The notes: a model not told the origin generated them from the letters alone. 64,000 bases of DNA from Escherichia coli (GCF_050920415.1 NZ_CP169309.1), one strand, 5' to 3'; counted from the stretch's first letter, positions 1,680-6,192 are shown. Numbers and translations: made by a program.

Positions 1680-1772
1680 TTACGCTGGTTAACAATTCGT
1701 GCTCTTAATAATACCAGGCATATCAGGCTGATAAGCGTAAAAAAAACGTTTTACATCAGTAAGATTATTATA

Positions 1773-1792
1773 TACTGTAAATATAAACAGTG
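1773..1792 (+). promoter_or_regulatory. LexA (SOS) box tACTGT-N8-ACAGtg
   Basis: Sequence tactgtaaatataaacagtg fits CTGT-N8-ACAG consensus; lies ~45 bp upstream of the small ORF/DinI-like pair. Confidence 0.55.
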
Positions 1793-1833
1793 GTTATACA
1801 TACAGCATTGCGTGTGGTGTCATAGGAGGAAAG

Positions 1834-2022
1834 ATGCAGGACTATTTTTTGGAGTCTTTGAAGCTCCAGCGCATTGATTTTTTTCTTAAGCTTGTAGCGG
1901 CTAGTGAGTGTAGTGATGAAGAGAAGGGGCTGGCTCTGCAGTGGGTTTCTGAATTGACTGATGAACTCATGGCAAAAATCAGAAGCCACGAATACAACCG
2001 CTCAATGGATGTCATCAGCTGA
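1834..2022 (+). CDS. small hypothetical protein, possible Tum-like antirepressor N-terminal part
   Basis: 62 aa ORF with ggagga RBS 6-8 nt upstream; follows LexA box; overlaps the DinI-like frame by ~60 nt in a different frame. Confidence 0.45.
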   Translation: MQDYFLESLKLQRIDFFLKLVAASECSDEEKGLALQWVSELTDELMAKIRSHEYNRSMDVIS

Positions 2023-2032
2023 GGTGACTTTT

Positions 2033-2266
2033 ATGCGCATTGAAATAATGATCGATAAAGAGCAGAAGATTAGCCAGTCTACCCTGGACGCCCTTGAATC
2101 CGAGCTTTACCGCAATCTGCGCCCCCTGTATCCCAAAACGGTAATCCGTATCCGTAAAGGTAGCTCTAACGGTGTGGAACTGACCGGACTGCAACTGGAC
2201 GAAGAAAGAAAACAAGTGATGAAAATTATGCAGAAGGTGTGGGAAGACGACAGCTGGCTGTATTGA
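2033..2266 (+). CDS. DinI-family protein (damage-inducible, RecA modulator-like)
   Basis: 77 aa starting MRIEIMIDK...; conserved DinI motifs (MRIE, LDAL..EL, WE..W near C-terminus); gagg RBS before ATG 2033. Confidence 0.75.
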   Translation: MRIEIMIDKEQKISQSTLDALESELYRNLRPLYPKTVIRIRKGSSNGVELTGLQLDEERKQVMKIMQKVWEDDSWLY

Positions 2267-2321
2267 TTTTGTCAATAGACGCTTGTTTTTACTAATCAAA
2301 AAGGGTTACATATGAGTGAGA

Positions 2322-2352
2322 GGCGATGTCAATCAGATATCGCCTTGTTTTT
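2322..2352 (+). terminator. putative rho-independent terminator after DinI-like gene
   Basis: ggcgat...atcgcc stem followed by ttgtttttt. Confidence 0.35.
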
Positions 2353-2379
2353 TGTCAAGAAAAGAATAATAGGCTAAAA

Positions 2380-3161: not shown

Positions 3162-3186
3162 GCCCGCCAGTTCTGGCGGGCTTTTG
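3162..3186 (+). terminator. rho-independent terminator
   Basis: gcccgcca-gttc-tggcgggc hairpin followed by ttttg. Confidence 0.55.
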
Positions 3187-3230
3187 CGTAGATCATGCAG
3201 GTGCATGAAAACCACTACATAAAGCGGGCA

Positions 3231-3250
3231 GGCGTGGCGGGGATACGAGC
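3231..3250. other. candidate cos (cohesive end) site of P2/186-like phage
   Basis: ggcgtggcggggatacgagc resembles the GGCG(A/T)GGCGGGGAAAGCA(C/T) cohesive-end sequence of P2/186 as I recall it; lies between the accessory region and the portal end. Confidence 0.3.
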
Positions 3251-3374
3251 GCGCGCTCATGGTTGAATTAATGAAATTATGGTGTTAAATAGGCTAGCTT
3301 TTTAAGTCGTGAATATTTGTCAACGCCAAGATTATTGGCCGTTTTTCGCCATTTTTAATGTCCGCTATTGGTCA

Positions 3375-4171
3375 TTAATGTTGTCCGCTTGCCGCCATTT
3401 CATCATCACTGATTGGCGTGGCGTTTTTTGCCAGCACTCCCGCTTTGCGTTTTTCCTTTAACCGGTAGCTTTCTCCTTTGATGTTCAGTGTGGTTGAGTG
3501 GTGTAGCAGTCGATCCAGGATTGCCGTTGCCAGCACGTTATCGCCGAACATCTCTCCCCAGTCGGCGAACCCTTTATTTGACGTCAGCACGATGCTCGCT
3601 TTTTCATATCGACGGTTCAGCAACCGGAAGAACAGACTGGCTTCCTCGCGGGTCATCGGCAGATAGCCTATCTCATCCAGTATCAGTACCCGGGCATAAC
3701 CAAGCTGCTGTAGCTGTTTTTCCAGCCGGTTTTCCTGTTTTGCCTTCATGAGTGTGGCGATCAGCTTATCCAGTGGCATGAACAGCACCCGATGACCAGC
3801 GTCCGCCGCTTTTACCCCGAGAGCGACTGCAGGTGCGTTTTACCCACACCAGGCGGACCCAGCAGGATCACGTTCTCGCTACGCTCCACGAACGCCAGCC
3901 CGGCCAGCTCACGGACGACCTTACGATCGATACCTGGCTGGAAGCCGAAGTCGAACTGCTCCAGCGTTTTGACCCACGGGAAGCGGGCCTGTTTCAGCCG
4001 GGACTCCATACTGCGCTGATGCCTCCCGTTCCATTCCTGCTGCAACGCCATGCACAGGAACTCGCGGTAGTTCAGTTCTTTTTTGGCCGCCTGCTCCAGC
4101 AGGCTTTCAACGTGGTAGCCCAGATGTTCCATTTTAAGACGACCCAGCAGTGTCTCCAGTTCATGCATCAC
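3375..4171 (-). pseudogene. istB: istB (IS21 helper ATPase) with apparent frameshift
   Basis: N-terminal 119 aa fragment with Walker [11 protein letters not shown] (3812-4171) and C-terminal 137 aa fragment (3375-3788) in different frames. Confidence 0.6.
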
Positions 4172-5338
4172 AACAGCTCCTCATAGGCACTCAACGGCCT
4201 GTGTTCCACCTGACTGACCTGCTGCCAGAGTGGGGCGTGATGCTCCGGCACGGTCTGCCAGCCGTATACAGCCGAACAGAGACGGTGCGATGCTACCTGT
4301 TGCTCATTACTGTAGATCCGCAGTTCATCATCCAGCGAGATCCGTATTGATACCGGCTGGCCACACAGGCTTTCCGGCACGCTGTAACGGTTCCCGCCAA
4401 CCTCGATATAGCCATCCCAGGAGACATGACGGATATCGAAGTAGCTGGTATCGAAGTCCGTACCTGGCAGCGCCTGCAGATGCACCTGTTCCTGCGTGAA
4501 GCGCTGTTCCGGTGTCTGCCTGAACTGGCGAAGTCCCGCCTGTCGGCAACGTCAGCCATCCACTGCTCCAGTAGCTGATTAACATGGGCGAAGCTGTCGA
4601 ACCGGCGGTACCGGACGAAGAAGTTTTCCTTGAGGTATTTCACCATCCGTTCCACCTTACCTTTGGTTCTGGCCCTTCGTGGACGGCAGGCCCGTGGCAG
4701 GAAGCCATAGTGATGGCCAGCAGCAGGAACCCGGAGTTGAACACCACCTTCCCGTTGTTATTTTTCAGCACTGCGGCTTTCTGGTTATCGACCAGCACGG
4801 TTTTCACGCTGCCGCCGAAGTAGCGAAAGGCGCGGACCAGTGACTCATAGGTATGTTCAGCATCCTGCTTTGGTGCCGCGAAGACATGGAAGCGACGTGA
4901 GAACCCCAGCGTATTAACCGCGAAGTTAACCCTGCATCGTTGCCCGGCAACCTCAGCCTCAACTTCTCCCCAGTCATGCTGTAGCTGGTAACCGGGCTGA
5001 GTTTCGAAGCGAACCGTTTTCTTCGATGGCCGCATCTTACGTTTGGGCTGGATGTAGTAACGCAACATGGAACGGCCACCGGTATAACCCATCGCTTTGA
5101 TTTCCGCCAGGATGACCTCGCCGTTCCAGACATTCTCAGCCAGACGCATGTCGATATAGTCCATGAACGGCTTGAGTTTGGCCATTTTGTGGCGTGTTTT
5201 TCTGGCCGGAGGTTCCGGGTATTTCAGGTACCGTCTGACAGTCCGCTCAGAGCAACCAACCTGAGTGGCAATATCAACAATATACGCACCTTGCTGGCGC
5301 ATTTGCTTTATCATGTAAAAGTCCTCTCTGCTCAGCAT
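4168..5338 (-). pseudogene. istA: istA (IS21 transposase) split by at least two frameshifts
   Basis: Three consecutive ORF fragments (4640-5338, 4293-4655, 4168-4485) together cover an IstA-like protein. Confidence 0.6.
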
Positions 5339-5485
5339 GAGTGTTCCCTTTGTGGTGTAGGAACCTTAAGGAAACAACATGTTGGGTGGAGCGGACAATC
5401 CAAATGGTGAATTACTGTCTTATATCATTGGCGCTGACATATTCAATTTTTCAACTCATTTTTTTCATAGGGAGGAGTAATTGAC

Positions 5486-6184
5486 ATGGTTATGTTAGTG
5501 GATGACTGTCCACGATGTGGATCACAAAAAATAGCGTTTGATGTTAATGGGCTGAATTGCACTAGGGTTTACAATGCATTGGGCGGGGGTAAAACATACG
5601 AGTACGAGGTCTATTGTGTTTGCCGAGAGTGTCATAAAACGACAATGTTTCTTTGCAGACCTTTAACGAAAAATAAAACTTTAGATGGCTATAATTGGGA
5701 AAGTGGAATATTCGGCTTAAAGGAAGTTGCAGAGGTTGTTAGGCCTATATCACCGGCAGACTTAGCAGTAGAGGAGCCACCAGAGTTCTTACCTGAGCAT
5801 ATCAATAGTGCATATGAGGAAGGGGCGAAATGTTTGGCTATAGGTTGTTATAATGCAGCAGCAACCATGTTTAGGCTTTGCCTTGATTATGCCACAAAAG
5901 GACTTCTTCCTGATGGGGAGCAAGGGCCTGCGCAAAAAATAAGGAGAAGCCTAGGGTTAAGAATGGAGTGGTTATTTGATAATCATCTACTGCCTGAAGC
6001 TTTAAGGGAACTAGCTGAATGCGTTAAAGATGACGGAAATGATGGAGCGCATGAAGGTATTTTGGATAAAGCTGCTGCTGAGGATCTTGAAGATTTTACC
6101 TATCTTTTTTTAGAACGGCTTTACACTGAACCTCAACGCCTTATCGAAGCCAAGACAAGGCGTGAACAAAGAAGAAACAAATAA
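5486..6184 (+). CDS. orphan protein with N-terminal 4-Cys zinc ribbon and C-terminal DUF4145-like domain; candidate phage-encoded defence/abortive-infection gene
   Basis: CPRC...CREC motif at N-terminus; C-terminal region with LAECVKDDGNDGAHEG signature typical of DUF4145 as I recall it; agggaggag RBS; AT-rich; sits between IS21 and the portal gene. Confidence 0.6.
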   Translation: MVMLVDDCPRCGSQKIAFDVNGLNCTRVYNALGGGKTYEYEVYCVCRECHKTTMFLCRPLTKNKTLDGYNWESGIFGLKEVAEVVRPISPADLAVEEPPEFLPEHINSAYEEGAKCLAIGCYNAAATMFRLCLDYATKGLLPDGEQGPAQKIRRSLGLRMEWLFDNHLLPEALRELAECVKDDGNDGAHEGILDKAAAEDLEDFTYLFLERLYTEPQRLIEAKTRREQRRNK

Positions 6185-6192
6185 GTTCGGAA

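Follow-up and report, generated by a model that had tools for sequence, protein, structure and literature searches.

What occupies the 4.5 kb between the replication gene A and the portal gene Q of a P2-family prophage in Escherichia coli, and is this DNA one block of cargo or an assembly of parts with separate histories? We address this question for positions 1680-6192 of a 64,000-nucleotide stretch of an E. coli genome (GCF_050920415.1, NZ_CP169309.1), to which we refer as the window. The locus as such is not new: the interval between gpA and gpQ has been published as a hotspot of diversity and defense genes (Odegrip 2006; Rousset et al. 2022, PMC9122126; Vassallo et al. 2022, PMC9519451), with 1,650 arrangements in 18,150 loci (Rousset et al. 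2022), and the position between cosL and Q was also noted as a pick-up site by earlier authors. An original prediction, made from the sequence of the window, described the whole interval as the main cargo hotspot of the prophage, in the place where P2 carries tin and old. Our analysis leads with good confidence to a more differentiated picture, namely a cos-proximal A–Q accessory region with four parts of different nature. Within it, the packaging site cos separates two cargo slots, one of which encodes a candidate relative of the abortive-infection RNase RAZR.

Two cargo slots on either side of cos

The borders drawn by the original prediction delimit the A–Q interval exactly, with the stop codon of A at 1679 and the portal gene from 6193, and all features it had listed (a LexA-boxed open reading frame (ORF), a DinI-like gene, a lipoprotein gene, cos, an IS21 element and a zinc-ribbon/DUF4145 gene) were found where it had placed them (Table 1). 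It had also expected an accessory region whose genes all differ from the P2 complement. Close relatives indeed carry other genes at the same place, and alignment to P2 matched the cos core and Q only, with no further DNA similarity to the right and left ends of P2. Like the published hotspot, the interval lies between the replication endonuclease and portal genes, beside cos, and its gene content varies among near-identical phages, as judged from BLAST against eight relatives and from annotations of related loci. In P2, the cargo genes orf91, tin and old are all located left of cos and only a terminator is present between cos and Q, whereas the window carries cargo on both sides of cos plus an insertion sequence (IS). 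Searches of the region with Rfam returned nothing, and a repeat search gave nothing beyond chance.

The cos core of about 60 bp shares 82% identity with the cosR/cosL junction of P2, whose 19-mer reads GGCGAGGCGGGGAAAGCAC, and 98% with the annotated "putative cos site" of Escherichia phage Cartapus (bases 1-59); identity to the relatives is 98-100%. According to PMC5694545, which cites Ziermann and Calendar (1990), P2-type cos sites have a 55-bp conserved core. Our genome counts, here and below, are based on a collection of 5,426 complete E. coli genomes; the cos-proximal DNA is found again in 1,276 of these. Judged by these similarities, the site is a genuine P2-type packaging site.

A segment-by-segment BLAST analysis against the eight relatives revealed a mosaic. 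The interval from dinI to cos, which contains the lipoprotein gene, is 99% identical in Fels-2 and two Klebsiella phages and absent or divergent in E. coli LF82, JSMCR1 and Cartapus (unmatched or 82% identical in LF82/Cartapus). The segment from cos to Q, including the DUF4145 gene, is 100% identical in LF82, JSMCR1 and Cartapus, and finds no match in Fels-2 and the Klebsiella phages except for a diverged 3′ end of Q (80-93%). The cos core itself is shared by Fels-2, the Klebsiella phages, LF82, JSMCR1 and Cartapus. Among the relatives compared, RM10740 alone has both modules without the IS, at 94% and 99% identity. Based on these patterns, cos divides the region into two independently exchanging slots of different ancestry. 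In such a scheme, cos would act as a conserved recombination joint, and the slots would consequently have independent histories.

Cartapus is deposited in the order cos – DUF4145 – Q ... A – hypothetical – DinI – two hypotheticals, with the DUF4145 gene at 162-860, adjoining the portal gene. This order places the two slots at opposite ends of the virion DNA. In close relatives, the slot between cos and Q is occupied by an AIPR/Abi-alpha protein, an St85-family retron, a 565-amino-acid protein (Fels-2) or other hypothetical proteins.

Table 1. Features of the A–Q interval and of the remaining prophage, with positions counted from the first nucleotide of the window
Feature	Position	Strand	Evidence or remark
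gpA-like replication endonuclease gene, 3′ part (cut by window start)	33-1679	+	ORF; homologous loci annotated "replication endonuclease"
Putative SOS promoter with LexA operator	1750-1792	+	–35 TTTACA (1750-1755), 17-bp spacer, –10 TACTGT (1773-1778)
LexA box TACTGTAAATATAAACAGTG	1773-1792	+	first six bases form the –10
62-amino-acid ORF, at the position of the antirepressor (N-terminal) half of Tum ("TumA")	1834-2022	+	phrog_698, E=6e-38
DinI-like gene ("TumB")	2033-2266	+	phrog_189, E=1e-28; RefSeq name "DinI-like family protein"
Terminator-like hairpin downstream of dinI (corresponding to 186 t95a)	2320-2346	+	11-bp stem and T-run; folding z = –3.7
Slot 1: predicted lipoprotein precursor, 225 amino acids, all-beta	2380-3057	+	signal peptide and lipobox LTG|C, Val at +2
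Strong terminator-like hairpin ahead of cos (corresponding to 186 t95b)	3159-3184	+	–23.6 kcal/mol; z = –5.0
P2-type cos core	3199-3258	.	predicted 19-nt cohesive end GGCGTGGCGGGGATACGAG at 3231-3249
ISEc62-like IS21-family element, 2,122 bp	3318-5439	–	ends TGTCAACGCCAA / TTGGCGCTGACA, TG...CA inverted
istB remnants	3375-4171	–	
istA remnants	4168-5338	–	
Slot 2: Cys4 zinc-ribbon and DUF4145/HEPN protein, 232 amino acids	5486-6184	+	Pfam DUF4145, 7e-7
Portal gene gpQ	6193-7230	–	ORF; homologous loci annotated "phage portal protein"
189-amino-acid ORF	14579-15148	–	phrog_18838; GC 0.34 against a background of 0.55-0.58
160-amino-acid ORF	28421-28903	–	phrog_2561; between ogr-like zinc-finger gene (28131-28394) and attR/ssrA
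tmRNA gene ssrA	29027-29389		directly after prophage end

A RAZR-like candidate in slot 2

The zinc ribbon of the slot-2 protein is formed by a CPRC motif (residues 8-11) and a CxxC motif (residues 46-49). Its four cysteines C8, C11, C46 and C49 are invariant in 30 homologues, a CxxC...CxxC pattern is present in 232 of the 266 family sequences, and the AlphaFold2 (AF2) model shows beta-strands across residues 3-59. Across 29 homologues, identity averages 35% in residues 1-90 and 70% in residues 100-232. The family is large: a library clustered at 50% identity contains 223 clusters of it at E≤1e-30, a number that rises to 1,900 when E≤1e-3 is allowed. A P2-like prophage of Dickeya also carries a homologue in its A–Q locus. 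The protein has been catalogued before: WP_000245245, the protein that RefSeq gives for the LF82 and JSMCR1 genes, is listed in Table S5A of Rousset et al. (PMC9122126) in loci of the type "hypothetical + DinI + hypothetical + hypothetical + DUF4145". The "Putative HEPN" from P2 that these authors did test (pFR103) is a different protein.

Zhang et al. (Nature 2026, PMC13017515) described PD-T7-4 as RAZR, an abortive-infection RNase with a zinc finger and a DUF4145/HEPN domain that forms a 24-mer around phage portal or Erf-like rings. Its residues R146 and H154 are essential, and the hypervariable zinc-finger domain sets specificity (PMC13017515). Defense-system prediction with PADLOC, a check that the original prediction had proposed, returned PD-T7-4 as the sole family match of the slot-2 protein (26 bits, E=1.2e-6; residues 36-200 align to positions 39-165 of the 211-position model). 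The same profile matched seven of ten more distant relatives at 15-46 bits, several of them over both domains, and gave no match for the other three. Sequence and fold searches of the PDB with the slot-2 protein did not return the RAZR entries 9Y9C and 9Y6U, and the best 150 matches in a representative-library search all belonged to the same family and did not reach RAZR.

The two proteins nevertheless have much in common. Both are single proteins of about 220-230 amino acids with an N-terminal Cys4 zinc ribbon and a C-terminal DUF4145/HEPN domain, both combine a variable N-terminal sensor with a conserved HEPN effector, and both are carried on mobile elements. The His of the R-x7-H motif is conserved (H189), and the R/K-x7-H spacing is kept. 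They differ in that homology is remote (26 bits), in that 165 residues of the slot-2 protein (36-200) fall on 127 model positions, leaving about 38 extra residues, and in their location, the slot-2 gene lying between cos and the portal gene of a P2-like phage without overlapping an integrase gene. On balance, we lean slightly towards a protein that is RAZR-like in mechanism, without placing it as a demonstrated member of the RAZR family. The gene may instead represent a large sister family of RAZR, in which most proteins have Lys at the catalytic Arg position.

If this holds, the slot-2 protein would be an inactive RNase in uninfected cells. When another phage invades, its ring-shaped protein would be bound by the variable zinc-ribbon domain, active sites would form by assembly of the HEPN domains, and RNA cleavage would abort the infection. 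The protein would then have evolved to ignore its own P2-like portal, encoded only 8 bp away on the opposite strand, and would provide a natural case of discrimination between self and non-self portals; ring-templated immune activation would extend to a second, phage-borne family. We put forward the full proposal, a RAZR sister family of ring-assembled abortive-infection RNases that spare their own portal, as tentative. Since the hotspot, the position and the exact DUF4145 protein were already catalogued, the finding is ordinary apart from this candidate. The DUF4145 gene is clonable and, as a candidate for a Lys-variant RAZR sister family beside a phage portal gene, the sole element of the interval with real follow-up value.

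The HEPN and portal genes converge (6184-6193) with 8 bp between their stop codons, and folding (z = –1.0) gave no convincing terminator there, so that transcripts of either gene could continue into the other as antisense.

A probable split tum module for SOS induction

The left part of the interval differs in nature from the cargo. The –35 and –10 hexamers of the putative SOS promoter were read by eye from the sequence, and a consensus scanner made no call there. The LexA box TACTGTAAATATAAACAGTG is the sole site in 64 kb with three or fewer mismatches from the consensus, against 0 expected in shuffled sequences; the window contains three CTGT-N8-ACAG cores, that of this box included. The LexA box is located 42 bp upstream of the 62-amino-acid ORF, and the promoter/LexA region is nearly identical to that of Fels-2. 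The 62-amino-acid protein shares 96.8% amino acid identity with STM2728 of Fels-2 and 98% with its homologues in Klebsiella P2-like phages and Cartapus. For the DinI-like gene, the NCBIfam DinI match falls below the cut-off. Its product and the C-terminal half of 186 Tum (residues 72-145) share 42% identity, and its Fels-2 counterpart is annotated "similar to TumB [PsP3]". The DNA of the complete unit is 97-98% identical in Fels-2, Klebsiella phages of the genera Elveevirus and Kapieceevirus and Cartapus, and the unit is present in every Fels-2-like relative compared.

Tum has been described as an antirepressor fused to a DinI-like half (Lemire et al., PMC3121763). The same source gives Fels-2 and PSP3 a "tum coding region split in two", through which phages of the 186 type are induced by the SOS response. 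In the annotation of 186, tum is LexA-repressed and Tum inhibits CI. The promoters are alike as well: the annotated LexA-binding site at 186 p95 likewise begins with the six bases of the –10. In the window, by contrast, tum is split into two ORFs, and the 62-amino-acid product has no sequence relation to the N-terminal half of Tum. By homology, we assign LexA box, 62-amino-acid ORF and DinI-like gene to such a split tum induction module of the phage, outside the cargo; from its position and the literature on Fels-2, we infer an antirepressor role for the 62-amino-acid protein. The LexA-repressed promoter would drive this antirepressor-type protein together with the DinI homologue. Upon DNA damage, LexA would be cleaved and the 62-amino-acid protein would inactivate a non-cleavable CI-type repressor of the phage, the cognate gene of which is located outside the window. 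When such loci are mined, the SOS module should be left out of cargo counts.

The lipoprotein of slot 1

The start of the lipoprotein gene is at 2380, and the product begins with MKINNVALPISLAVILTGC. The signal peptide MKINNVALPISLAVILTG|C fits the lipobox L-x-G/A-C, whose G18 and C19 are invariant in 22 homologues; this call was based on reading of the sequence and on the alignment. The protein belongs to phrog_1353, and searches of Pfam, NCBIfam and PADLOC gave no match. Among 5.8 billion proteins, 27 clusters were found, and all of those with an organism name are from Enterobacterales. The gene is present in 49 of the E. coli genomes.

The layout of slot 1 mirrors the order p95–tum–t95a–orf97–t95b–cos of 186, in that a DinI-like sequence is followed by an accessory ORF bracketed by two terminators and then by cos. 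The second hairpin is also present in Cartapus, with a differing stem and loop. According to the annotation of 186, t95a terminates partially and Orf97 expressed from a plasmid "blocks 186 infection". Given the same layout, some read-through from the SOS promoter into the lipoprotein gene is plausible. The maximal lipoprotein ORF (2326-3057) and 186 orf97 (3605-4336), which occupy the same slot, both have exactly 243 codons, a coincidence of length.

The lipoprotein is probably located in the outer membrane. Prophage lipoproteins such as Llp, Cor and Bor are known, and by analogy to these and from its position, a surface or exclusion function is our best guess, which we offer as a possibility. 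Independently of slot 2, the protein could perhaps be a superinfection-exclusion factor of a new fold.

An ISEc62-like element in slot 2

The IS21-family element shares with ISEc62 the istA-istB order, the inverted TG...CA ends and the 4-bp target duplication, here TATT at 3314-3317 and 5440-5443. An intact ISEc62 copy of 2,125 bp, which encodes IstA of 390 and IstB of 264 amino acids, matches it at 99.4% identity. In comparison to this copy, single base pairs are deleted at window positions 3829 (istB) and 4533 and 4714 (istA). As a result, istA is frameshifted twice and istB once, and both are split into separate ORFs. The copy is thus probably non-autonomous. It is the only one in the window, and its closest relative (99.8%), in a lambdoid prophage of E. 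coli MFDS1022581 (NZ_CP169399.1, 2520545-2522669), is also frameshifted in istA and istB.

The site is empty in RM10740, LF82 and Cartapus, and none of the 5,426 genomes has the same insertion at this site. The element sits 68 bp right of the cos 19-mer, 59 bp past the conserved core and 46 bp upstream of the HEPN start codon. The insertion probably spares cos. It came later into slot 2, adding 2.1 kb to the phage genome and leaving the cos core untouched. Where the original prediction counted the IS as cargo, we regard it as a secondary, probably defective insertion. Because istAB points away from the HEPN gene, native promoter elements beyond the insertion point, if present, now lie 2.1 kb further off, and we infer that the IS probably separates the HEPN gene from its native upstream promoter region. 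The insertion would thereby be a natural example of secondary decay of a defense slot.

Alternative explanations

Several results weigh against parts of this reading. BLASTP gave no alignment between the 62-amino-acid protein and the N-terminal half of 186 Tum, although divergence is to be expected if antirepressors co-vary with their repressors, and our literature search, which did not cover Bunny et al. (2002), found no experiment on this protein. For the lipoprotein, homologue and fold searches returned nothing informative, and homology to 186 Orf97 had to be rejected because the two proteins are dissimilar (BLASTP E=4.5). A promoter scan upstream of the HEPN gene, in both the intact and the IS-interrupted arrangement, detected no sigma-70-like site. 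The catalytic loop of the slot-2 protein (residues 181-190) has low confidence in the AF2 model (pLDDT 54), and a Lys (K181), invariant in the close clade, stands at the position of the essential Arg146 of RAZR. Finally, all three deletions in the IS lie in homopolymers of 2-3 nucleotides.

In line with the original prediction, the whole 4.5 kb could be read as a single composite island of cargo that is accessory throughout and corresponds in function to tin/old of P2, which we consider improbable. All genes do differ from P2 orf91, tin and old, relatives carry different genes here, and the GC content outside the IS is 41.6%, compared to 53% in the flanks (gene A 53%, Q 51%, P 57%); the low GC content ascribed to the interval does not, however, extend to the IS (54%). 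The LexA/62-amino-acid ORF/DinI unit, by contrast, is conserved at the DNA level and matches the 186-type induction module, and cos is a core packaging function that separates parts of different ancestry. By the condition that the original prediction had set for its own refutation, part of the interval thus counts as core. The term cargo therefore stands for the two slots and not for the unit, which belongs to phage regulation. For slot 2, it could be argued that the zinc-ribbon/HEPN protein is no anti-phage defense at all, either serving the phage itself in host RNA shut-off or regulation of the lytic cycle, or having a HEPN domain inactivated by Lys in place of Arg. The canonical Arg is replaced by Lys in 155 of the 266 family sequences, the gene abuts its own portal gene, which a RAZR-type sensor would have to ignore, and Rousset et al. 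(PMC9122126) catalogued the protein outside the systems they tested. We nevertheless think this unlikely. In the wider family, Lys alternates with Arg (51 sequences) at this position, so that K181 occupies the site of the catalytic Arg, and the invariance of K181, H189 and the GNDGAH motif in the close clade argues for a conserved active site. The gene was found in 42 of the E. coli genomes compared to 1,276 with P2-type cos DNA, and is thus accessory. Outside phages, homologues occur beside integrases and transposases and near AbiTii: one adjoins an integrase in Pseudomonas, as reported for PD-T7-4, and another is located among integrases, transposases and AbiTii in Oceanimonas. The pattern of a variable sensor and a conserved effector is that of RAZR.

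The frameshifts in the IS could also be assembly or consensus errors in an intact, active ISEc62 whose insertion was maybe recent and irrelevant to the phage. Multi-copy repeats are prone to polishing errors, all three deletions are of the homopolymer type described above, and the nearest copy, that of MFDS1022581, belongs to an assembly in which many genes are "frameshifted", so that the two copies cannot decide whether the defects are real. On the other hand, neighboring long ORFs (A, Q, P and an ORF of 1,025 amino acids, the size of a tape-measure protein) show no interruption and 8 kb of the chromosome match a reference at 100% identity, and three indels within 2.1 kb therefore look specific to the element. 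On this evidence, we rate assembly errors as rather doubtful and keep to a defective IS copy.

Prophage setting and further low-GC positions

The first ~29 kb of the window represent the right part of the P2-family prophage, which ends beside ssrA. DNA of its structural half (6193-29100) is 99.9% identical to Cartapus (Peduoviridae/Elveevirus) and is likewise that of a prophage of E. coli LF82, and the gpA-like gene is 96% identical in E. coli and Klebsiella relatives. By these similarities, the prophage is a Fels-2/Cartapus-like member of the P2 family (Peduoviridae) integrated at ssrA in E. coli. The position of ssrA immediately beyond the prophage indicates that the Fels-2-type ssrA attachment site was used. 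Positions 36-44 kb of the window are 100% identical to the chromosome of E. coli MFDS1022581, with at least 95% identity in 5,425 of the 5,426 genomes. In MFDS1022581, whose chromosome is otherwise 100% identical here, an Stx2g lambdoid prophage occupies the same ssrA site.

That the A–Q interval is the main cargo hotspot of this prophage, as originally predicted, is plausible, but the same prophage has at least two further low-GC insertions. One is the 189-amino-acid ORF at 14579-15148, for which PADLOC gave no match. It lies within the late tail/baseplate operon, in the opposite orientation and at the place of orf30 in P2, and is probably another moron slot. The 160-amino-acid ORF at the prophage end constitutes a third low-GC cargo position. 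Its product is similar to NAD-dependent DNA ligases in their BRCT-like C-terminal part and shows a weak match to the C-terminus of the PADLOC candidate PDC-S48 (E=1.7e-7).

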